From positions 205,034,001 to 205,098,000 of the forward strand of contig OZ024742.1 in assembly GCA_964016885.1 (NCBI GenBank): a stretch of DNA of 64,000 nt, written 5' to 3'. The translations under genes were made by a program, and so were the position numbers. Below, piece after piece: positions 30,733 through 53,300 of the stretch (the stretch's first letter is position 1; the number at the start of each line of letters is the position of its first letter). This DNA is from Eledone cirrhosa (taxonomy: Eukaryota). The notes under the pieces were generated by a model, which was not told the DNA's origin, did not search any database, and saw only the letters and a list, made by a program, of their open reading frames with translations.

Positions 30733-31131
30733 TGTGGGTATGGTGTGCGGTGGCCGGAAGCTGGGGAGTGCTCGACCGGAAGGGCCAGCAGGTTGGCCTC
30801 TCTCTAGCGGTGATCAAACGTGGTGGACACGAGTTTGGCAGCTCCCGTGTTAATGAGTTGGATCGTACGCACGTGGAAGAGGAGAAACCAGCCATGGGAT
30901 TTAGCGGCGCCTATGAAAAGCGGTAAGTGAGATAGCTTTTTCTAACCACAAGCTATTTCGGCACTGGAAACTGAGATCTGATAAAAAAAATAAAAAATAA
31001 CTTTCTCGAAAACAAAGCTACTGGAAAAACAGAGAGGAGTCTGTTGTTTTTTATTTATTACGTACCGCAAGACAAATTAGTATGGCGATGAGACTACGAA
31101 CGAGCGAAGTGATTAGGGCATTTACCGGTGA
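30733..31131 (+). mobile_element. Truncated LTR retrotransposon (LTR, leader and gag start), related to 46595-50625
   Basis: LTR TGTGGG...AACCACA at 30733-30950, then AGCTATTTCGGC; gag start MAMRLRTSEVIRAFTGE versus MATRLRMNEAIRPFTGE. Confidence 0.85.
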
Positions 31132-36500: not shown

Positions 36501-38091
36501 CCTCTGCACACAATGCCCAAGTCTCACTGCCGTGTAACATTGCTGTTCGTATGCAGGCATCATACAGCCTGCCTTTCATTTTTAGAAAGAACCCTGAACT
36601 TTTTCATTTTTAGAGAGAACCCTGAACTTTTTCCATCCCGTTCTGACTCTAGCTACTGTACATTCAGAGCACCCTCCACCACTGCTGATTTTGTCACCCA
36701 GGTAACGGAAGGTGTCCACTATTTCTATAGAACCATCTGTGCAATGGAATGAGCTAGTATTCTGTGGGCACTTGCTGCACCTGAGCACCGGCCACATATA
36801 AAATCTATATTCTTAGTTAGCATACCTATGATCCCACTACATCTTTTATGCACCCATACTTTGCATTTGGGACATAAAATGGAGTTTCTGCCTACTCCTT
36901 TCCTACACACTGAGCATGGCCATTTCCCAGATGGGACCAGTGCCCTATTTTCCTTCCTACAAACTAAAACTTTAGTCTTAGACAGGTTAATTTTAAGGCC
37001 TTTTGATTCAAGGCCATGCTTCCATGTTTGGAATTTCTTCTCTAGTTCAGCCATTGATTCAGCTATGAGCTATGATCATCTGCGTATAGGAGGTCCCATG
37101 GGCAGCCGGTCATGAACTCCTCTGTTATAGCCTGAAGGGCAATAATAAATAGTAGGGGGCTAAGAACGAAACCCTGATGAACACCAACTTTTACGCTAAA
37201 ATCTTCACTATATTCGTTGTTAATTCTAACCTTGCTAACTGTTTCTTTATACATGGCTTGTATAGCTCTCACAAGCCATTCATCAACACCTAGTTTTCTA
37301 AGAGCCCACCAGATAATGGAGCAGGGGACTCTGTCAAAGGCTTTCTCCAAGTCAACAAAAGCTAAGTATAGGGGTTTACTTTTAGCTAGGTACTTCTCCT
37401 GTAGTTGTCGTACAATGAAAAGAGCGTCTGTTGTACTTTTACCTTGTAGCAAGAGTTGCCTCCCTTGTCATGACAATCTCATCACCGCTCTCTAGACAGG
37501 AAGTAGCTGGAGTTGCTTCCCTTTGGGGTTGACAGACTCCCTGTTGGTCACTTCCGGTCAGACCCTATAAAAGGAACAGGTCAGGACAATCTTTCTCTCT
37601 CGCCTCCTGAATTCCAAAGTGGTAACACCTGCGACCTTAGCATGAGGTGATTCCTTTCTCATAATCATTCGCCACCAAGAAGAATGCAACATGCAGCCTA
37701 AGAGCCTAAGAAGATGTTAACACCTCCAAGAGAAGATCTTTGTTTTTCTCCACAAACTTCAGCCTGGAGTTGTGATCCACGGGTAATGATTTATTTATAT
37801 TAATCCCTTTGACTTCTATGAAGTAAAAACATTATCACAACACACACCGGCATTTGGAGTCTCTCTTCTCCATCATTAGTGTTTTTGGCGCGAAATAGTC
37901 CGCCATGTTGGATTTTTTTTTTTTTTTACCTTAGTAATAACAGCATTCACTTAATCGCTTCTTTGCATATTGACCCGGATGCATTATTTTTCCGGTCCAG
38001 TGGTTTGACAGGGAAAAATAAGCGATTTTGTTTTCCTTTTCTGTTGCGTTAGAGACATTTTTCCAAACGGTAAATTGCCTACGGTATACCA

Positions 38092-38875
38092 ATGGCTTCC
38101 CACTCTGTTCTGCCAACCTACACGGGCGACGTAAGGCTTTGGTTCGCCCAGCTAGAAGCATTATTCAAGGCGAACAGAGTTGACGAGGAACTACAACGTT
38201 CTGTGGTCCTTAGCGCAATTCTGCTGGCAATTCTCCCAGCGTTTAAGGACCTGGTGTTAGAGACACCCACAGACTCGTCGTACACGTCTCTGAAGGCTGA
38301 AATACTCAGCCGGACAGAACACTCTTCAGAAAAAAGATTTAGGGCTTTGGTCCACTGGAGCATATAGGGGATGGCACCCATCGAACCTCCTAAGGCGAAT
38401 GACGGACCTAACGGAGGGATCGGTAGCGGAAACTGCCCTGCTGAAGCAGTTGTTCTTCTCGCGCCTGCCGACCAACGTACAGGCAATTTTGGCCCCCATG
38501 AGGGATACAAGCACGGTGGATCAGCTTTCCGCCTCTGCGGACAAAGTTTTCGAGGTGACGAATGCCGGAGGCAGCGACCCCCTTGCCGCTGTTCACCACC
38601 CAGCTCGGGCCACACACGGCCATGAGATCTACGCGGCAGCGCCAATAGACAGCTCAACCATTATGGCGATGCATTCAGGAACTCACCATAGAGCTCCACA
38701 AGATGAAGGCCTTGTGTGGTGCCCGTTCGCGCCCCTGCAGTCGCGGGAGATCGCAAGTTTTAGACGGCGTTCTAAATCACCAGCTTCATCTTTATGCTGG
38801 TACCACGAGCGATTTGCTGAGAACGCGAATCACTGCGTGCAACCTTGCTCCTTTCATAAGGCGGGAAACGCCTAA
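38092..38875 (+). pseudogene. gag of CsRN1 element A (frameshifted)
   Basis: LWFAQLEALF...LFFSRLP...CWYH..C..PC split over ORFs 38092-38367 and 38399-38875. Confidence 0.85.
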
Positions 38876-41800
38876 GAGGTCCGCTGATGGGGACAGCTGA
38901 CCTCAACATAAAGCCACCAAACCGCCGTTTCTTCATTAAGGACCTCATGTCCGGAAGATGTTTCCTCGTGGATACAGGAGCCTCCTGTAGTATTTGGCCG
39001 GTCCATTGCCTGAAAGATACCCCCATAGAGTCATCTGTTACGCTGCAGGCAGTTAACCACTCGTCTATAAAGACGTACGGGCAAATCTCGCTTCCTCTCA
39101 AATTCCTAAATCTTCGAAGGGATTTTAAGTGGATTTTTACGGTTGCCGATTTGCCATACCCCATCTTAGAAGCGGATTTCCTCCACAACTTCTCTTTAAC
39201 TGTGGACGTCCGTGGCCAACGCCTGGTGGATAACATCACCGGCTTTTCAATTCATGGCCAGGAAGCCAATGCTCCAATAGTCAGCCCCATGTTCTTCGTC
39301 GCTGCCGCTGGAGACGCCTACCATTCGTTGCTGGGTTCTTTCCCGGAGCTCACGGATGGAAATTTTCGAGTCACTGACCCAACACACTCGACCGAACATT
39401 TTGTTTCCACCACCGGTGCTCCAGTGTTTTCGCGTCCACCCTGCTTACCGACGGAAAAATTAAAGGCAGCACGGTCCGAGTTCGACCATATGCTGCAGCT
39501 GGGCATTATTCGCCCACCTACGAGTCCTTGGGCTTCACCGTTACACATGGTGCCCAAGACTTCCGGCGACTGGAGATCCACTGGGGATTATAGGAGGTTA
39601 AATGCCATGACCGTCCCGGATAGGTATCCCATTCCCCATCTCCATGATTTTGCATCTTCACTGCAGGGATGTAAGATTTTTTCTAAGTTAGATTTAGTGC
39701 GAGCCTACCACCAAATTCCGGTCAGGAAGGAGGATATTCCGAAAACGGCGATTACAACCCCTTTCGGATCCTTCGAATTTTTGACCATGCCTTTCGGACT
39801 CAGGAACGCCGCTAGCACTTTTCAGCGGTTCATAGACGAGGTCACGCGTGGTCTGGACTTCGTTTATGCTTAGATAGACGATATTCTCGTCGCTAGTTCC
39901 TCCCCGGAAGAGCATATGCGCCACATGCTTCTCTTATTTCGGCGACTTCAGGATTACCGCGTTCGCGTGAATCCAGCAAAGTGCGTTTTCGGTTCCACTT
40001 CCCTAAATTTTTTAGGCCACCTCATCGACGCCGAAGGTATTAGGCCGCTCCCTCAGCGAGTTCAAGCCATACAGGAGTTACCTCCGCCTACTACACTTCA
40101 CCAGTTGCGTCACTTCTTAGGCCTAATCAATTTCTATAGGCGTTTCGTTCCTCATTGTGCTAATTTGCTATCTTCCCTTACTGACATTTTAAAAAGTCGT
40201 CGTAAGAAGAATGAGGATATTTCCTTGACACAAGGACAACTTCAAGACTTCCAGACTGCCAAGACAGCACTCGCTAGTTCATCTTTGCTAGCCCACCCGG
40301 TACCAGAGGCCAAGCTTTCGCTTTGTGTTGATGCATCTGATACCGCTGTGGGAGCAGTTTTACAGCAGTCCTACTTTTGGCATTTTTCTCGAGGAAGTTG
40401 AAACCAGCAGAAACGCGTTATAGCACGTTTGGGCGGGAATTATTAGCCATATATCTGTCGGTGAAACATTTCTCTCATATTCTTGAGGGGAGAAATTTTA
40501 CAGTTTTTACCGACCACAAACTGTTGACCTTCGTTTTGAGGGCCAAAGCCGACAGATATTCGTCCAGAGAGACAAGGCACCTGGACTACGTTTCACAATT
40601 TACAAACGATATCCAGTACATTGCCGGCTCGCACAACATAGCTGCAGACGCATTGTCACGTTTGCCAATTAGCTCCATCTCGTCAGCCCAGGAGATCGAC
40701 TTAGGTCGTTTAGCTGCAGACCAGCCTGCACTCCAATCGTTGGACACTCTTTCTGCTGAATTTGCGACTTGCATTTTCAAATATCTGCCCTTGTCCACCA
40801 CCGACAGGCAGATTCTATGTGATGTATCTACTGATGCACCACGACCACTTGTTCCTGAGACTCACCGTCGAATTGTGTTCCTGGCTTTGCACAACATTTC
40901 TCATCCAGGATCTGCTGCCACAGTAAAGCTCATAACAGCCAGATTCTTCTGGCCAAATATGAGGCGCGACATTGCTGCTTGGTGCCGTTCCTGCATCGCT
41001 TGCCAGAAATCGAAAATCCATAGACACATCCGGACTCCACTTGGTACTTTCAGTACTCCAGATGCTCGGTTTCAACACATCCACATTGACATCGTTGGAC
41101 CTTGGCCATTCAGCAGTGGATATTCATACATATTGACCTGTGTCGATCGTTTTTCGCGATGGCCTGAAGCCATCCCTTTACAAGACATGACTGTTGAGAC
41201 TGTAGCACGTTCCCTGGTATCAGGGTGGATTACCCGCTTTGGGGTACCAACTACACACACCACAGACCGTGGTAGACAATTCGAGTCCCATCTCTTCTCT
41301 GAGCTCACAAAAATAATTGGAGCTCAGCGGATTCGGACCACAGCCTATCATCCTGCTTCAAATGGAATGGTGGAACGATTCCACCGCCAATTAAAGGCCG
41401 CTCTTCGCGCCTATCCAGACTCTCAACGTTGGAGTGAGTACCTTCCTATTGTGTTGTTAGGAATTCGGTCATCAATAAAGGAGGACCTTGGGTTCTCCCC
41501 GGCCGAATTACTTTACGGTGCTCCTCTAGCGTTGCCTGGGCAAATGCTTGCCCCTGTTGATCTTGCTTTCCAAGATCCGCTTTCCTACGTATCCCGTCTG
41601 GGTTCTTATTTTCAGGACCTGCCGCCGATGGATACGAGGAAACAAACTGTAAAACCTGCGGTCCCGAGGGATATTGCCTCGTGGACCCATGTGTTCGTAA
41701 GGAACGATGCTGTGAGACCACCCCTCACACAACCATACTCTGGACCCTACCGTGTGTTAGCACGTACTGACAAACATTTCACTGTAGACGTTAAGGGGTC

Positions 41801-41990
41801 CAGAGAGACAATTTCGGTGGATAGACTGAAAAGAGCACACACTGACGCTCATACATCCGAACCACAAATACCCCAATCTTTCTCTCTTGTGCATACACCT
41901 GCTCCTTCTGCCCCACCTTCACCTACATACAAGACTACGACCCGTTCCGGTCGGAGAGTCCACTGGCCCAAAAAGTCTGCCAAACTATTT
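38863..41990 (+). pseudogene. pol of CsRN1 element A (PR-RT-RH-IN) with stop and frameshift
   Basis: [20 protein letters not shown]; YIDD tyrosine replaced by TAG (39871-39873); CVDAS, HPG..C..C, HIDIVG, TDRG, NGMVER, GPY. Confidence 0.92.
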
Positions 41991-44900
41991 TTATGTGAAC
42001 TGGCCACTGGAGCCTTATTATTTTTTTGCTGTTCTTGTTATTTATTGATTTATTGTATTACAATGTACCTCTCATTACCATTTCACTGGATGTATATATA
42101 TGTTTTTCGTTTCCTTTTACAACGAACATTTTAAGCTATATTCTTCTATTTGCCGGTTTAAAAATTTACCATGTAAATTTGCCGTTGAAAACTGCGCATT
42201 TATTCAGAATGCTTATTTCTCTGGTCGCTGGCCTCTTGACCCTTCCAGGACAACGCATTCACAACATCAACAACAACAACACAGCTTCATCATCAACCAA
42301 AACCAAAACCAGCAGAACAAGCCAGAGAATTTATTTCTGCAGCACTCTTCCTGTGAGAAATTCCCTTCGGAAGTTGGAAATTTCACGTTATACCACAGAC
42401 CAGAAACCACCTGCATTCATTCTCTGGAACACATTCTTTCCTGCTGTCATGTGATTGCACACATGTGAACTGTATTTTGAACTTTGACCTCTTCTCTTAC
42501 TTTTATTACATTGTATCATAATGTTCATGCCTCTTACATGCTCGCCATCTTACTCCATGCATGCTTCATTCGATTTTTATGTTTTAAAAATCTGGCGGGA
42601 GATAATGTAGCAAGAGTTGCCTCCCTTGTCATGACAATCATTCCTTTCTCATAATCCTTCGCCACCAAGAAGAATGCAACATGCAGCCTAAGAACCTAAG
42701 AAGATGTTAACACCTCCAAGAGAAGATCTCTGTTCTTCTCCACAAACTAGAGCCTGGAGTTGTGATCCACGGGTAATGATTTATTTATATTAATCCCTTT
42801 GACTTCTATGAAGTAAAAACATTATCACAACACACACCGGCATTTATTGTCTTTTGTAATAATTTTATATGTACACCGATACTAATCTCCTAAAACCTGA
42901 CACAAACCCGAACTGCATTTCATCTAGATCAATTCACTCTCTGATTAGTTGCGCTATTACTTTTTCTGTGATCTTCATGACCTGGTCAATTAATTTAATG
43001 CCTCTATAGTTTCCCCTATCTAGGGCATCTCCTTTACCCTTGTAGCAGTTAGTGATGATGCTGCTATGCCAGTCCTTCAGAACGACCCCATTCTGTATGA
43101 CTTGGTTTACTATCCGGGTGACCATAGTGTGTCCCACCGTTCCAGAGGCTTTCAGCATTTCAGCAACTATTTCCGAAGGCCCAGCCGCCTTACCCGTCTT
43201 CATATCTTTCATTGCCTTACTTATTATACTACCTTCAACTTGCACTGCTGGTCCCTCTATTGGATCGATGTGGGGGAGGCTGTCTTTCTCCCATTTATTC
43301 TCCTCATTTAGTAGCCTTTCGTAGTGACACTTAAAGCTACCTTCTTATCAGCGTCAGTGATGGCAAGTACACCATCATCATTAAGGACACACTTCTCCCA
43401 GACAATATCACGGTTTTCCTTGACACATTGCCTAGCAATCCTGAACACCTCACGTTTTTGGTCCTCGCGTTGTAGAACATGCTTGAACTTTCTTTCCTCT
43501 GCTTCCCTTCTTGCAAAGTACACTTGTCTCCTAGCTTTCCTCCTGGTCACTTGATAGTCTTCTCTACTTCCCCCATCCCGCGCCATACTTTCCAAGCCTG
43601 CTTTTTGGCCTTGATAGACTCCTCCACCTTACTGTTCCACCACCATATTACTCTCCTCCTGCCTATAGGTCTGCTCCAGTCACAGACTTCATATGCCGCC
43701 TTCAGCAGGTTAGCTTTCAGGAGTTCCCACTGTTCCTCTATATTGTACGACTCTAATTACTCTTCCTTACTGTCAAAAGCATCAAGTAATATGCTTTTAA
43801 ATTTATTACTGGCTGTGGGGTCCTTTAGCTTCCATATTTTTCTCCTGAGGATAGTCCTCCTCTGTTGTCGAATACATCTTGTCCTGACTATGAGTCTATG
43901 TTGGGAGGTGCATTCTTCATGGGGGAGGGATTTAGTGTTTACAACAGACACTCTATCACGTCTTCTGGTAAGGATATAATCTATCTGACTGGCGTATTCC
44001 CCTGATCTATAGGTGATCAAGTGATTGTCTCGTTTTTTGAAGTTAGTGTTACAGATAGTTAGGTTATTTGCGTCACAGAATTCCAGGATTCTGGAGCCTT
44101 CCTCATTTCTAGTACCAAACCCATAGCCTCCATCGATTCCGTCATAGCCGTCACAATGTTGTCCAACGTGACCATTTAGGTCGCCAGCAATAATTATGTA
44201 GTCACTGTCGGTTATTTGGGAGGTAGTGAGCATCAATGACTCATAGAATCTGTCTTTTATAACGCCAGGCAGTCCAGATTGACAAATTAAGCAAACACAT
44301 TTTCCGAAGTGCTCAATGAAAAAATAGCTAAGTGTCCAGCCATCGTTAAAAGTTCGGCACTCCAAATCCACTTTTCTTAGCTTCCATGGGCTTGTTTTTG
44401 TTCAAACAAAAAAGATTTATGGAAAGGAAAAAGAACAAAAAGTATAATAATCAGAATGGAGAAATAAGAAACAATGAAAACAAATGTAAATGCAAATACA
44501 GTAATGCGATAAAATATGATAATTGTTAATAAATTATATAAAACCCGGTTTCTAACGACGTTATTAGATCAGGGTTGCCATTTGTTTTTTTAAACCACTT
44601 TTGGCCTAATTCTAATAATAATAATTCACACAATTTATCACGAATAATTAAATAAACGTTATTATCGAATAAAGATACCTACTGTATATTTGTTATACCA
44701 CCAGACAACAAACTCAAATGAAAATACTCTGGGGAGGAGGGAACGAAGTAATTTGTCTCACACATGTCATCGGTTCGATGTCTCCGGAGATTATGAATGA
44801 GGTTCGAGACCTCATTTTAGCACCACCCGGCTCTGTGTCATATGACACATTTAAAACAACATTAATTAAGCGGACGTCGGAGTCGCAGCAGAAGCACTTG

Positions 44901-46888
44901 CACCAGCTCCTCATATCAGAGGAATTAGGAGATAAAAAGCCGACACAACTTCTACGGCGAATGAAGCAGCTCCTGGGAGAACATAAACTCCCGGATGAAA
45001 TTTTCAAGCAACTCTTCCTCCAGCATTTGCCTTCTGCCACACAAGTTGTACTAGCATCCACCAGGGAGTCTACCACCATAGAAGAACTCGCCGAGCTGGC
45101 AGATAAGATCATGGAGGTACCACATCCGCACTCAACTTTAGCGAATGTGACGCCAGCCCCCCCACACACACACCACCAATCCTTTCCTTCAGCCCTCCAG
45201 TGCCACACAGATGCCCGATCTACACCAGTTACTGGCACAGCAAGCAACACAGATACAGGCCTTGACGCAACAAATTCAGGCCTTGTCAGTGGGCAACCCT
45301 GCCACGCGTCGGTCCAACAGTCGAACTCGACGATTTGGTGGTCGCTCAAGAAGTCCGAGCACATCTCGGGATTCACCAGAAATGTGTTGGTACCACCAAA
45401 AATTCGGGAGACGAGCACAAAAGTGCAGTCATCCCTGTTCATTTGTCGAATCAGTGAAACGACACAGCCAGAAACTGAATGCGACGGACGTTTCTGGCCC
45501 TCATAACCAAAGTCGCCTATTTTTCATTCAGGATCGCGTCACAGGCACGCGTTTCCTGGTCGACACCGGTGCTGAAGTCAGCATCATCTCCGTTTTCTGC
45601 GTTCCTGGAAAAAGGAGAGAGACACCAGCCTGGCTCCAGGCAGTGAATCACTCATATTCCGACCTACGGAGAATAGTCCCTGACACTAAATTTGGGACTA
45701 CGTCGCACTTTCCAGTGGGTATTCGTTGTGGCTAAGCTGCTGACCCCTATTTTAGGAGCTGATTTTCTTCAGAACTTCTCGCTGCTAGTGGACTTGAAAA
45801 ACCAACGACTCGTTGACAACTCCACTGGTCTCGCTGTGCGCGGCATAGCCGCTAGGACAGCCACAGTCAGTCCAGTCATTTCACGATCGACAACAACAAC
45901 ATCATCATCAACAAATACCCAGACGTAGCTCGACCACTATTCAACGCTTGCTCTGTAAAACATGACGTCACACGCCACATAAAAACACACGGCCCACCTG
46001 TCACTGCACGACCTAGAAGGCTACCACCAGACCGGCTGAAGTCCGTCAAACAAGAATTTCAGCACATGCTTGATCTCGGCATCAAACGTCCGTCCAGCAG
46101 CAACTGGTCCTCACCCATACACTGTGTACCCAAGAAGTCGTCAAACGACTGGCGAATCTGTGGCGACTACCGTGCACTGAACAACTGTACCATTACTGAC
46201 TCTTATCCAGTGCCTCATCTACAGGACTTTTCTAGCTCACTGCACGGGGCTTGCATATTTTCGAAGATCGATCTTGTGCGAGCTTACAATCAGATACCCA
46301 TTGAGCCCCCAGATATTTCTAAGACCGCCGTCACAACACCCTTTGGAATGTTTGAATTTCTGCGTATGCCTTTCGGTTTGCGAAATTCAGCGCAGACATT
46401 CCAGCGATTCATCGATACAGTCACCAGAGGTCTACCTTTTGTATACGCATACATTGACGACTTACTGGTGGCCAGCAGCTCTGATGAAGAACATGAGAAA
46501 CACCTAGATCTCCTATTCACACGTTTGCGTGAATACGGAATTGTTATCAACCCCAGCAAATGTGAGTTCGGAGTTGCATTCCTTCATTTTCTGGTGTGGG
46601 TATGGTGTGGCGTGCGGTGGCCGGGGGGGGGGGGGGGGGGGGGGGGGTGAGTGCTCGACCGGAAGGGGTTTTTGAGTGCTCGACCGGAAGGGGTCTTTGA
46701 CCGGAAGGATGCTCGACCGGAAGGGCCAGGAGAGGGCCTCTCTCTAGTGGTGACCAGCATACGGCGAGGACGCGTTTTGGGTAGCTCCCGGTGTTAAGCA
46801 GTCGGACGCACGTGGAAGAGGAGTACCTGCAGTGGAATTTAGCGGCGCCTGTGAAAAGCGGTAAGTGAGATAGCTTTTTCTAACCACA

Positions 46889-46900
46889 AGCTATTTCGGC
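46889..46900 (+). promoter_or_regulatory. Putative primer-binding site complementary to tRNA-Phe nt 1-12
   Basis: AGCTATTTCGGC is the reverse complement of GCCGAAATAGCT, the 5' end of metazoan tRNA-Phe(GAA) as recalled; identical at 30951-30962. Confidence 0.65.
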
Positions 46901-46958
46901 GACTGAAAAAAAAAAAAAAAAAAAAAAAAAAAACACTTGCCGCAAAACAAATCAGAAG

Positions 46959-47720
46959 ATGGCGACAAGACTACGGATGAACGAAGCTATCAGGCCATTC
47001 ACCGGGGAAGGTGATGTTGTCGCTTGGCTGCGGAAGGTTCGGCTGGTCGCGGGCTTGCAGAAGATAGAAGACGTGGCCGGTCTCATTGCATTGTACCTCG
47101 AGGGCGACGCGTTGGTACTCTTCCTTGAGTTGGACGAGCACAGCCAAAGAGATGTGCAGAAGCTTGAGAGGCGTCTGATGGATGCATTCGCCGAGGGACC
47201 GTTGGCGGCTTTTGCTAAGCTGGCGAGAATCAGGTGGAATGGTGAGCGCGTCGACATTTTCGCAGCGGAAATAAGGCGGTTGGCTATGTTGGCGGGTTAC
47301 CAGGCGGAATGCGAACGCACAGTGCGGTTGGCATTCATCAATGGATTTCCGGACGACATAGCGGTGAAACTGCAGCAAGTCCCGGGGTACAAGGAGATGG
47401 AAATGTGTTCACTGGTGGAACAAGCCCGGATCATAGCGGAAGATGCCAAAAAGAGTGTCGCGGCGATAGCGACTACGGAGGCTCAGGACACCTGGCAGCG
47501 AAATGGTCAAAGGGAGGCAACCTCGGCACGCGGCCGTTCGCGAGAATTTAGGGGCCGCTGTTTTAGGTGTCACGGCCCGCATATGGCTAGAGACTGTAGA
47601 GAGTCGAAGCCGGATATAATTTGCTACCGGTGTAAGCGACCAGGCCACATCGCTACTAACTGCGACCAGGGAAACGGTCCAAGGGGAACTACTGCGCCGG
47701 TAGTTGCCCCTTACGAGTAG
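46959..47720 (+). CDS. Gag (intact, 253 aa, two zinc knuckles)
   Basis: ATG-to-TAG ORF; CFRCHGPHMARDC and CYRCKRPGHIATNC. Confidence 0.88.
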   Translation: MATRLRMNEAIRPFTGEGDVVAWLRKVRLVAGLQKIEDVAGLIALYLEGDALVLFLELDEHSQRDVQKLERRLMDAFAEGPLAAFAKLARIRWNGERVDIFAAEIRRLAMLAGYQAECERTVRLAFINGFPDDIAVKLQQVPGYKEMEMCSLVEQARIIAEDAKKSVAAIATTEAQDTWQRNGQREATSARGRSREFRGRCFRCHGPHMARDCRESKPDIICYRCKRPGHIATNCDQGNGPRGTTAPVVAPYE

Positions 47721-47726
47721 CGGCGC
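47669..47726 (+). promoter_or_regulatory. -1 ribosomal frameshift signal (slippery heptamer plus hairpin/pseudoknot)
   Basis: G GGA AAC in the gag frame; the -1 frame is open into the protease; stem at 47681-47712; loop GCGCCG can pair with CGGCGC at 47721-47726. Confidence 0.8.
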
Positions 47727-50340
47727 TGCCCGTGGTGGAAGTCTTCGTGAGAGGGAAGCCACAGCGAGCCCTCGTGGATACGGGCTGTACGACGACACTG
47801 GTGACCGCGGGGGTGGCGCAGAGGTGGGGAGGGAAGAGCAGCGTAAGGGCAGTCGACGGCAGGAAAATTGAATGCCGAGGTCGCAGCGAGATGGAAATAG
47901 CGGTACGGGGAAGGACGATAAGGCTTTCCGCCATCGTGGTAGACAGTGTGGTGGATGGGATCGGCGTGGTTATGGGCATGGACGCGATTGGCCGTCTAGG
48001 GGGCGTCACGGTGAACAATGTCGGTGTGTCGTTTGGCGCCGCTGCATCGGTATGCGCTGTGAGTGCACGTCATGAGAACCAGAAGGCCCACGAGGAGCAA
48101 TACCCCGTTACACTGTACAGGACAAGGACTTCAAGGCCGTGTTTGATGGGCATCGATGGGTTGTTGAGTGGTACTGGAAGGGAGAACCACCAACACTGAA
48201 GACCAAAGTGGGCTGCTATCAACACACATTGAAGGGAAACGCTAGGGGCGAGTTCGAGCGAGAAATAGAGAGATGGATCGAAGAGGGCATACTGCTTCCC
48301 TGGAAGGAGGAGGTGAAGTGCGGAGTATTGCCGTTGATGGCGGTGGTGCAACCCACGAAGAGCAAGGTGAGGCCGGTGCTGGACTATCGAGAGCTGAACG
48401 AGCACGTGTCATGCCACACGGGTGGCGAGGTCACGGATGTCTGTGGGGAAACCCTGCGTGAGTGGAGACGCATGACGGGGGGTTCAGCGATCGTGGATCT
48501 AAAGTCTGCTTACTTGCAGTTGCATATAGATGAGAAGCTCTGGCGGTATCAGCTGGTCAGGTATAAGGGCCGGACATATTGCCTGACCAGGCTCGGTTTC
48601 GGGCTGAGCTCCGCACCGAAGATCATGGCGGCGGTCCTCAAGACCGCTCTGGGGAGGGCCGACAAGATAAAGAGGGCTACTAACTCCTACATTGACGACA
48701 TCCTAGTGGACGAGTCGGTGGTGTCGACGGCGGAGGTCACGAGCCATTTGCGGAGGTATGGACTGACTGCGAAGCCATCAGAAGCATTGGAGGGACTTGG
48801 AGTGACAGAGTGGGAGAGAGAACGGTGGCCATGATGCAGGAGATCGTGGGGAGGGTGAAGGCCGACGACCCAGTGCGGGGACGCTGGTACGTTCCCAAAT
48901 CACGGAGCGGGACCGTATGGTGCGATGCCAGCAGCATAGCGCTGGGTGTCACGTTGGAGATAGGAGGTGTTGAGGTCGAGGATGCAGCCTGGCTTAGAAA
49001 GAAGGACGACTGCAGCCACATCAACGTGGCCGAGCTGGACGCGGTGTTGAGAGGGGTGAACCTCGCCCTGCGGTGGGGGCTGCGCACCATCGAGATACGC
49101 ACCAACTCGGCTACCGTACTCGGATTGGTAAGATCAGTGCTCACCAGTGAGAAGAGAGTGCGAACGAGAGGCGCGGCGGAGATGCTGATAAAGCGCCGCC
49201 TGGGAACGTTAGGAGAGCTGGCCACCGAGTTCGACCTGAAGCTGAGCGTAGTGTTCGTGCCCTCAGAGAAAAATAGGGCGGACATCTTAACTAGAGTGAA
49301 GAAAGCCTGGATGGAAGCGCCGGAGGAGGTAGAGGATGAGATAGCTGCCGTGTGTCGGCTGACCGAGTTAGACCTGAAGGGGTTGCATGACATGCACCAC
49401 ATGGGGGTGGATAGGAGCCTGTTCCTAGCCAGGAGAATCGACTCAGACGTTAGCAGACACAGTGTTCGGGGGTGGTTAGAGGCTGCGTCCGATGTCAGTC
49501 CATTGATCCCGCCCCGGGTGTACACGAAACGGGAAGCCTCCCGGTGGATCGCGACTGGAAGCGATTAGCGGTGGATGTGACGCACTACTGGCAGGGAACG
49601 TACCTCTCGATGGTCGACTGTGGACCAGGTCGAATGACGATATGGAGGGAGATGAAGACTGGAACGGCCGAGGAAATCGTGCGGACGTTGAGAGAGGTGT
49701 TCTTGGAGCGGGGCCCTGTGGATGAACTGCTGATGGACAACAGCGCAGCGTTCCGCTCGGAGGCACTGAGGGAGATGCTCGATGGATGGAAGGTGGACCG
49801 TTTCTTCAGAGCGGCGCACAGGCCGAGCAGGAATGGACTCGTGGAGCGACACCACCGGACGATCAAGGCAATGGCGGAGCGGGGCCATATCTTACCAATG
49901 GAGGCAGTGTTCTGGTACAATATGTCCCCTCGGGTTGGACAGGTCGAGGAATCGGTGCCACACAGAGCAGTATTCAAATACGAGTGGCGGCACCCGTGCA
50001 CGCCACCACAACGGCCAGTGGGGAGAGAGAGTGCATTCGTGCAGGTGGGCGAAGAAGTCTGGGTTAAGCCCCAGATGCACGGTGCACATCTCAATGGGGA
50101 AGGGGAACGGTGACGGCCGTAAATTCAAAGAACAATGTGTCCGTGGACGGGGTACCACGTCATGTCCTGGATGTAAGAAGAATCACTGTATCGACGGACT
50201 CCGAGGAAGAGGAAACCCAAGATGAGGTGGAAACCCAGAGCCCTGCCCCAATACTACGAAGATCGCAACGAAGTCGTAGACCACCGACCTGGACGGCAGA
50301 CTTTCATATGCAGAGGGACGAGGGGGAAATTGATCCTTGA
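47669..50340 (+). pseudogene. pol (PR-RT-RH-IN) of the nested element, with frameshifts and a probable internal deletion
   Basis: ALVDTGC; RPVLDYRELN, VDLKSAY, RLGFGL, YIDD; WCDAS..HINVAEL; HDMHH..CVRC, AVDVTH, MDN, NGLVER. Confidence 0.88.
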
Positions 50341-53300
50341 GATCAGGGGGACGTGTGGGTATGGTGTGGCGTGCGGTGGCCGGGGCGGGGGGGGGGCTCG
50401 ACCGGAAGGGGTTTTTGAGTGCTCGACCGGAAGGGGTCTTTGACCGGAAGGATGCTCGACCGGAAGGGCCAGGAGAGGGCCTCTCTCTAGTGGTGACCAG
50501 CATACGGTGAGGACGCGTTTTGGGCAGCTCCCGGTGTTAAGCAGTCGGACTCACGTGGAAGAGGAGTACCTGCAGTGGAATTTAGCAGCGAAAAGCGGTA
50601 AGTGAGATAGCTTTTTCTAACCACATCTGGGACACATCATTGACAAAGATGGTATTCGCCCACTTAAGGAGAAAGTCAAATCCATCATTGATTTTCCACA
50701 ACCTACATCTCTCCGCAAACTGCGAGAATTTCTTGGCCTGGTAAACTTCTACAGATTTATACCCCACTGTGCAGAGACAGCCCAACCACTCACAGATTTG
50801 CTGCAGCAGCGTACAACCAAAAACGCAAACATCAATCTCAGCGAAAAAGACTGTACCGCTTTTGCTGAACTGAAGAAAATGTTGTCCGAGCTATACAATG
50901 CTGAGTTACCCCAAACCTGACGCCCCAATGTGTTTATTGACTGATGCATCCGATTTCAGAGTTGGAGGTGTGCTTCAACAACTCTCTGGCGATATTTGGT
51001 GACCTGTATCTTTTTTCTCTAAGCGATTAAAACCCGCCGAAACTAAGTACAGCACATTCAGTCGTGAATTATTGGCAGCATACCTTGCTGTCAAGCATTT
51101 TCAACACATGCTAGAAGGTCGTGTTTTCTCTATATACACCGACCACAAACCACTAGTGTACGCATTCAACGCCAAGCCTGACCGACACTCACCCAGGGAG
51201 GTCCGACATCTGGACTTCATTTCTCAGTACACTACTGATATTCGGTACATTAAGGGTGCCACCAACTCAGCAGCTGATGCCCCATCACGCATGGAGCTTA
51301 ACGCAATCCACACCACTGCTACTATTGACCTCCAGAAGATTGCAGCGGATCAACAGAATGACGAGGAACTGCTGCAACTCCGGAAATCATCCTTGAAATT
51401 GCAGGAATGCCCACTGCCCTCTTCTTCGGGTTATATTTGGTGCGATATCTCCACAGGCCACAAGCGCCCATACGTGCCCCGGAAACATCGACGCAACGTT
51501 TTTCCGGCACTGCATTCTCTGGCACACTCTGGTGTCCATGCCACGCAGAAACTGATGGTTGCCCGCTTTGTGTGGCCCAACATCAATAAGGACACCCGCG
51601 AATGGGCTAGGAACTGTATCGCATGCCAGAAGGCGAAAATTCACCGGCACATCAAAGCCCCAATCGGTTCTTTCACAACACCTGGTGCACGGTTCCAACA
51701 TGTGCATATAGACATCGTTGGAGCTTTGCCTCCTTCTCACAATTACACTCATCTTCTCTTGTCGACTGATTTTCTCGCTGGCCAGAAGCTTTTCCCCTGA
51801 CGGATATTACTGCGGAAACTGTCGCCAAAACGCTAGTGTTTCACTGGGTTTTGCGGTTAGGCACACCCGCGACCATCACTACGGATAGAGGACATCAGTT
51901 CGATTCGCACCTATTTACCGAGCTGACTCGTCTCCTCGGGTGCAAACACATCCGTACAACAGCGTATCACCCTGCCGCTAACAGCATGGTAGAATGCTTC
52001 CACCACCAGCTAAAAGCATCTATCAAGGCTTACGAAGACTCCACTAACTGGTTTGAATACCTCCCACTCATTCTTCTTGGTATTCGTTCTACTGTTAAGG
52101 AGGGAGTCGGACATTCTCCGGCTGAAATGGTGTATGGCACCGTACTCATTCTACCCGGACAAATGATTGCTCCTGTTTCGCCACAAGAACTTCCAGACCC
52201 TACAAAATATGTGCACCGTTTACGGTCATCGATGCCGCATCTGTCTCCTTCAACCCCTAAACAACAGCACGTTACTTCACAAAAGACATCTATACATGGA
52301 TGCATGTTTTCGTTAGAAATGACGGTATTCCATCGCAACTTCGTCCGCCGTATTCCGGGCCCTATAAGGTGATACAGAAACGCCTTAAGTATTTCGTCCT
52401 CGACTTAAACCGGAAACGAAATACCGTCTCCATTGATCATTTTAAAAAAGCGTTCATAGAACAGGAATTGCCACCACTGCCCACCGTTTCTCCAGCAGAC
52501 TCACCAACAACTTTGCCCGACACAAACACGACAAATTCTGCACAACCCCGACACACCAAATCTGGAAGAACAGTTCGATGGCCCACGTGATACGTACAAG
52601 TTTATCGGGTAAGTACAAATTATGCATCTGGTCAACATTTCGGCTAATTTGTACATTTCAACGAATCGGCCAATTTCTGTGGTCGTGAACTATTGTTACA
52701 CACAAATCAATTAACTCTGTGCATCACCCACATCAAAAGAACAGACAAAAGAACATTTTTCCGTTTCTATGAAATGAACGAACTTTTAATCAACAAACTT
52801 TTCGTACGAACATTTTCAATTTTATGTAACATCACAGTACATTTTCCTGCATGTAAATTACTTTTGCTTTGCATGTTTTCTTTCATTTCGCCTGTTTGTC
52901 TTTCATGTGTTTTTTTTTTTGTTTTTTTTTTACTGATTTTCTTCAACAACACACCTAGTCATACCTATCTTTATTTCACATACACCTAGATCGTTCAATC
53001 TTAGCTTTCTCACTGGAAGGGTGGTACTATAACGGCGGCGAAGATTCGAAACCGAATCTGAGCTTTCCCACCTCTGGGACAAGCCATGGTAAGTTGTTTA
53101 CGCTCAAGAGGGAGAGGCTAAACACAGGTCAGAGGTGTTTACGCCTAGCAGAAAATAGGTCAGAGGATATATCCATCTTTCTGACTTGTTTACGCTTGGC
53201 AAACTAATCCCTTGGGAGACGCTAACCGAAGTTCAGAGGATATATCTATCCTTCTAACTTCAACCCTTGTAAATGCAGGGGTTATTTATGCCCCGGCAGA

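Follow-up and report, generated by a model that had tools for sequence, protein, structure and literature searches.

A putative primer-binding site complementary to nucleotides 1-12 of tRNA-Phe in a lineage of animal LTR retrotransposons

An LTR retrotransposon of Eledone cirrhosa carries, at the position expected of a primer-binding site (PBS), a 12-mer complementary to the 5′ end of tRNA-Phe, and comparison of sequences indicates that this feature at the PBS position is real and lineage-wide. It is proposed that a 10-12-nt 5′ tRNA fragment primes minus-strand DNA synthesis from this site, a reading to which we give a probability of roughly 0.7. Priming by a ~10-12-nt 5′ fragment of tRNA-Phe had been suggested in the initial annotation of this DNA; the comparisons below support it, and a switch of the site to the 5′ end of another tRNA lends it added support.

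The element and its PBS position

The window (the whole stretch of DNA analysed, 64,000 nucleotides, in which the parts of the element and of its truncated relative lie on the + strand) contains the element at 46595-50625. It has direct LTRs with TG...CA ends, a target site duplication (TSD), a polypurine tract (PPT), a gag zinc knuckle, and protease, RT, RNase H and integrase, as expected of an LTR element. The 5′ LTR (46595-46888) aligns with the 3′ LTR (50354-50625) at 94.5% identity over 253 nt, and the pair is flanked by the TSD TCTGG at 46590-46594 and 50626-50630; TSDs are 5 bp long in 39 of the 45 family copies in which both ends were read. Downstream of the putative PBS are gag (46959-47720), an ORF with a zf-CCHC match to its zinc knuckles, and pol (47660-50225; protease, RT, RNase H and integrase), which has several broken frames in the window copy. 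A slippery-type heptamer, GGGAAAC (47669-47675), lies at the gag-pol junction, where it would direct a frameshift, and is also present in L039 and L159, two loci from outside this genome. The PPT and the CG that follows it (50339-50353) stand upstream of the 3′ LTR; this CG is found between PPT and 3′ LTR in 38 of the 42 copies read, and a PPT-like tract recurs in L039, L159 and the further outside locus L162. The element sits inside an ordinary Gypsy element, whose RT region it interrupts and whose flanking parts lie at 44673-46594 and 50626-52372, and another Gypsy-type element is located at about 37650-42850.

The putative PBS, AGCTATTTCGGC (46889-46900), adjoins the terminal CA of the 5′ LTR with no spacer, and the TGG-type site for the tRNA-Phe 3′ end is absent after the LTR, as the initial annotation had stated. 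An identical 12-mer occupies 30951-30962, directly behind the LTR (30733-30950) of a diverged, truncated relative; with the TSD (50626-50630) following the 3′ LTR, the 12-mer is internal to the element, and these two earlier observations also hold. On both strands of the window, the 46889 and 30951 sites are the only matches to the 12-mer with at most one mismatch (chance mean 0.15).

The 5′ end of the host tRNA-Phe(GAA) is the exact reverse complement of the 12-mer. The 15-nt start of this tRNA has 247 matches in the genome, and ARAGORN predicted tRNA-Phe in seven of the eight fetched loci with this start; the 12/12 match to nt 1-12 given in the initial annotation is borne out by the host genes, whose start does not differ from the one stated there. 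The complementarity covers tRNA nt 1-12 exactly and ends on both sides. On the LTR side, pairing with C13 of the tRNA needs a G and the base present is A. On the other side, 23 of 28 gene readings (loci that overlap enter twice) have an A immediately before tRNA nt 1, and the base after the 12-mer is T in none of 56 copies picked by their RT and none of 30 loci picked by the pattern; because pairing with a pre-tRNA leader would demand this T, the match ends at the mature tRNA 5′ end. Within the element, every other tRNA-Phe complement is shorter than this 12-nt run. In the six elements checked, complementarity to the tRNA-Phe 3′ end does not exceed 8 nt, and no further stretch complementary to tRNA-Phe exceeds 9 nt. 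The predicted duplex amounts to -18.8 kcal/mol with the tRNA, against -7.9 to -13.8 with the elements' own LTRs. The near-universal tRNA bases U8-A9-G10-C11-U12 fall inside the motif, which raises the odds that it fits some tRNA. The host genome also contains long tandem arrays of tRNA-Phe with tRNA-Asn (G000:C4:117361445-117660811) and of tRNA-Lys(CUU) genes (G000:C4:79559065-79617868).

Conservation of the site within the genome and in relatives

Genome-wide, CA followed by the 12-mer occurs 527 times, versus once for a reversed control; a variant of the 12-mer with one change occurs 21 times, versus 22 for the control, and in no case follows an LTR. Among 30 loci picked by the pattern, 28 hold coding sequence of the lineage, one more holds a family LTR and one resembles a chance match. 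So that the site itself was not selected on, 60 copies were chosen by RT alone from the 150 matches listed, and the 12-mer was sought in them with a two-mismatch search. It lies directly behind the LTR end in 56 of these 60 copies (among the matches listed), being exact in 48, with one mismatch in seven and with two in one; in the other four the region is lost or missing. When changes to the site were mapped on a tree of 55 of the RT-picked copies, those inside the 12-mer appeared as scattered single events. The position just past tRNA nt 1 shows four states and six changes on this tree, compared with five changes at the next most variable position, an excess that gives weak backing to a run-off at the primer 5′ end. 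A G opposite C13 as the last base of the 5′ LTR, considered as the footprint of a longer primer, was rejected, since it is found in three copies only, genome-wide, alongside two substitutions to C and two short deletions.

Protein searches returned 552 and 730 relatives, whose names point to molluscs, crustaceans and the nematodes Trichuris and Trichinella, and DNA scans yielded eight outside loci, five of them readable at the primer site. The 5′ region is missing in L160 and L164, and L040 proved to be an ordinary Gypsy element. The five readable loci have RTs with 45-55% identity and unrelated LTRs, and the PBS register is kept in all five. The identical 12-mer follows ACA in L039 (RT 51%) and L162 (RT 55% over half of the RT), while in L159 (RT 45%) it has one change, a mismatch to the tRNA-Phe sequence. 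In L161 (RT 46%), three changes turn the site into a 12/12 complement of nt 1-12 of human tRNA-Lys3 (UUU), the human 5′ sequence being that given in the cited passages of two reports (PMC8715211, PMC12217144). The LTR of L161 ends in AAA instead of ACA and has no twin LTR that would fix the boundary, and no tRNA with a start of the human Lys3 type was found in the Eledone cirrhosa genome. L163 (RT 48%) pairs over 10 nt with nt 3-12 of Eledone cirrhosa tRNA-Lys(CUU). No TGG-type PBS was seen among the homologs. In the RT tree, one well-supported clade contains the site-bearing outside loci, which lie on basal as well as derived branches. These comparisons support a lineage-wide PBS register, with a switch from the tRNA-Phe to the tRNA-Lys 5′ end. 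Two doubts raised in the initial annotation are answered by the same material: the homologs have neither lost the site nor acquired a TGG PBS, and conservation does not follow the U5 complement to the PBS, which folding and LTR comparison placed in the window's clade only.

Nematode and crustacean relatives also appear to carry the motif, translated in proteins whose reading frame extends across the site. Of 571 proteins, 203 have a locatable gag, and 29 of these have at least 45 residues upstream of a conserved Trp, and the 27 distinct N-terminal extensions tested include a few that are mis-anchored, the rows being partly non-independent. T-S-Y-x-G occurs in 8 of the 27 (mean of 0.11 in shuffles, never above 2). 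A Q-A-I-type motif likewise occurs in 8 of the 27, one of them spurious (mean of 1.3 in shuffles, never above 6); in 1000 shuffles, neither count was equalled. The third-frame peptide motif was found in 0 of the 27; on visual inspection, KLFR appeared in just P0481 and P0591. QAISA and TSYFG are consistent with the Phe form of the site, and in one pair of related clusters one frame gives QAISA and a second YKLFR. TSYRG is the reading in Trichuris records and TSYLG that in a Macrobrachium record, with QAIAA and QAITA elsewhere; across the read-through variants both ends of the site are fixed and the bases opposite tRNA nt 4-6 vary. P0537 (TSYPG) was dropped as a second Lys(UUU) case, three of the four members of its cluster reading TSYLG. 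A separate sub-branch, P0222, P0237 and their kin, has single Gag-Pol proteins of 1340-1420 aa.

In viral contigs, three protein scans revealed no relative of the lineage, 58 matches to the 12-mer pattern included no lineage protein, and 32 tRNA-like matches did not reveal the partner tRNA of the nematode or crustacean variants. Five further pattern matches in four bins (G001-G004) proved to be unrelated. In these four bacterial genome bins (L159-L164, L234-L263; G001-G004), LTR retrotransposon contigs of eukaryotic type are numerous, suggesting host contamination. Locus L332 (G003:C16:1-12000) has a tandem repeat unit of ~8.2 kb with an element of its own and a second short fragment of LTR end, PBS and gag.

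Lineage and comparison with known priming modes

By their sequences, the elements are a DUF7047-bearing LTR lineage distant from ordinary Gypsy RTs. DUF7047 and an RVT_3-type RNase H are each present in 34 of 34 lineage proteins and RT_RNaseH in one of 34; the neighbouring Gypsy elements match RT_RNaseH. A very long branch separates the lineage RT from five ordinary Gypsy RTs, in a tree without sequences named as BEL, DIRS, Copia or retrovirus. Among solved structures, the best sequence matches of the lineage RT-RNase H are retroviral integrases; the retroviral RTs returned by a fold search share 11-16% identity and do not fix the position of the lineage, and an Atlas search gave mixed RT families. 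The RNase H motif of the lineage may be reminiscent of DIRS elements.

Half-tRNA priming, described for copia, Ty5, Osser/Bryco/Bianca, fungal Copia and Helenus, likewise uses a 5′ part of a tRNA with a new internal 3′ end, the cut being putative in our case (PMC6317226, PMC5371799, PMC10886601). As far as the cited passages go, those systems combine a cut in the anticodon arm with pairing to it, whereas the window's lineage pairs with nt 1-12 and would need a cut in the D stem; PBS pairing with the anticodon arm was not found in this lineage. Among plant elements the half-tRNA mode is, in the passages cited, that of Ty1/copia only, whereas the domain order in the window's lineage is PR-RT-RH-IN. 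Tf1 and Tj1 (Tf1/sushi) likewise have a short RNA primer from an extreme 5′ end, a site adjacent to the LTR and a required cut, again putative here (cited part of PMC4600332). The Tf1 primer is the element's own transcript, in contrast to the host tRNA that is the partner in the window's lineage, where the LTR has no complement; no PBS that would pair with the transcript of the element's 5′ LTR was found in the lineage. The proposed mode thus resembles half-tRNA priming in the cut tRNA and Tf1 in the very short 5′-terminal piece, and would fit neither class.

Metaviridae (Ty3/Gypsy) have LTRs, a PPT, gag-pol and the PR-RT-RH-IN order in common with the window's lineage (PMC7879559), but their ICTV profile gives them a PBS for a host tRNA 3′ end (PMC7879559), which this lineage lacks; self-primed members of the family show that a 3′-end PBS is not universal. 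Troyka is likewise a compact group of LTR elements from aquatic animals, lies outside the usual Gypsy clades and has the same domain order (PMC12440569), but according to the cited part of its description its ends are CG...CG, its TSDs 3 bp long and its zinc finger longer, in contrast to the TG...CA ends and 5-bp TSDs found here (PMC12440569). The Conserved Hairpin Site (CHS) in GalEa copia elements of fungi is likewise a conserved non-TGG motif in the PBS position (PMC5445492); in the passages cited it is palindromic, is paired with an inverse complement downstream and has no tRNA partner, whereas the 12-mer is non-palindromic and matches a tRNA 5′ end (PMC5445492). Troyka, Helenus/Ajax and Saci2 were considered as earlier accounts of the site and set aside, the cited parts of them not describing it (Saci2 was compared by description only). 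Our literature search, which took in the motif and DUF7047 and lay outside Repbase, Dfam, GyDB and most subscription journals, turned up no account of a PBS directed at tRNA nt 1-12. This agrees with the earlier statement that no such mode was known as described, and the families may be catalogued, and their site remarked on, in Repbase-type libraries.

Proposed mechanism, alternatives and implications

We propose that the site invades the tRNA and displaces its acceptor and D stems, probably with assistance from the Gag zinc knuckles, and that the tRNA is cut at or just 5′ of U12/C13 to give a 3′-OH. The end of an LTR is defined by the start point of minus-strand DNA, and for this reason the primer 3′ end would be at tRNA nt 10-12. 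It may be nt 10, 11 or 12, a range adopted because the CG next to the other LTR may mean that the ends are trimmed by 2 nt. The 10-12-nt primer would be extended by RT into U5; plus-strand strong-stop DNA would copy the primer and run off at tRNA nt 1, and the 12 nt would serve the second jump. The RNase H of Tf1 reportedly has a role in cutting that element's own RNA primer, and by analogy the favoured cutter would be the RNase H of the present element, whose acidic motifs are conserved in intact relatives. A host nuclease such as RNase P would be the second choice; the Ty5 primer is made by RNase P, according to the cited passage of PMC5371799. The most specific version, in which a so far undescribed animal lineage of superfamily rank uses its own RNase H to cut the D stem of annealed tRNA-Phe or tRNA-Lys and so releases a 10-12-nt 5′ primer, is tentative, and we put it somewhat below an even chance.

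An uncut tRNA could also anneal by its 5′ end and let RT start at an internal 2′-OH near nt 12, giving branched RNA-DNA such as retrons make from a 2′-OH. This route would produce the same complementarity and register without any nuclease, and the RT is indeed highly diverged (RVT_1 E values of about 1e-5 to 1e-9), but it has ordinary LTR-type motifs and plus-strand synthesis would have to pass a 2′-5′ link; we know of no LTR element that primes from a tRNA 2′-OH and consider the route unlikely. Binding of the tRNA 5′ end, or of a longer fragment from that end, might instead serve packaging, dimerisation or regulation, with priming from another 3′ end, such as that of a longer fragment after trimming or that of a bipartite arrangement. 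A role of this kind has a parallel in the split PBS of Ty3, where the D arm pairs elsewhere (cited part of PMC5371799), but the complement found here adjoins CA, the LTR end, in all 56 copies, and the six elements lack the longer tRNA-Phe 3′-end complement (>8 nt) noted above, so that we judge it quite unlikely.

Two further readings dispense with the tRNA altogether. That the first 5-6 bases of the 12-mer are nearly invariant lineage-wide would suit a protein-binding or integration signal for which base pairing is irrelevant; such a signal is made very improbable by the 12/12 fits to two tRNA 5′ ends with three coordinated changes, and it would leave the element with no primer site. With the ends fixed, the three verified tRNA starts fill about 3/256 of the middles, an estimate that other tRNAs would raise. 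Alternatively, the tRNA match would be coincidental and priming Tf1-like, from the LTR, a U5 hairpin or a splice junction within the LTR. The window's clade does have a U5 arm that pairs with 10-11 bases, G-U pairs included, and a splice-donor-like motif; in 11 families, however, the longest Watson-Crick complement in the LTR measures 4-7 nt, and trial splices anywhere within the LTR give 3-8 nt at best. Under self-priming the site should change along with the LTR, but no similarity is detectable between the LTRs while the site is identical. Cutting within the U5 arm would leave just ~13 nt for copying, and the window has no reverse-strand match to the 12-mer at up to one mismatch. We regard self-priming as largely refuted by these comparisons, and as extremely improbable.

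If a primer made of tRNA nt 1-12 is indeed used, it would be a fourth type beside the whole tRNA, half-tRNA and self-primer that are distinguished in the cited passages of a plant-wide survey (PMC6317226), and it would belong to a lineage with members in molluscs, crustaceans and the nematodes Trichuris and Trichinella. It would imply a D-stem cut with an extendable end and a job for very short 5′ tRNA fragments, and cutting of the tRNA by RNase H would make it a trans-acting version of Tf1 priming. As reported in the cited part of PMC7472051, 3′ tRNA fragments are a host defence acting on the PBS; a 5′-end PBS would be invisible to them, which would allow escape from silencing. Annotation that checks tRNA 3′ ends alone, as in the methods passage of PMC13524379, would score the elements of the window's lineage as PBS-less.

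The U5 region of the window copy has features of its own. In the predicted fold (z -1.85), an arm at 46866-46876 forms a clade-specific hairpin with the LTR end and positions 1-10 of the PBS. The arm resembles tRNA-Phe nt 3-12, and the hairpin (46866-46898) is a predicted mask of the PBS, which in this model would possibly act as a switch between translation and priming. A splice-donor-like GTAAGT with a putative role in splicing is located at 46861-46866; the contigs of two runs contained no joints bearing on splicing or transcript starts. Motifs of this type lie 25-28 nt upstream of the LTR end in all ten own-genome copies inspected, and none was seen by eye in the LTR ends of distant relatives. 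The own-genome families with the U5 splice-donor-like motif are those of window 46861-46958 and 30923-31081 and of L154, L265-L269, L010 and L025. Most of them also have a pyrimidine tract and AG shortly upstream of the gag ATG, the acceptor of the window copy being weak; an intron between the donor-like motif and the gag ATG, if real, would strip the PBS from the mRNA.
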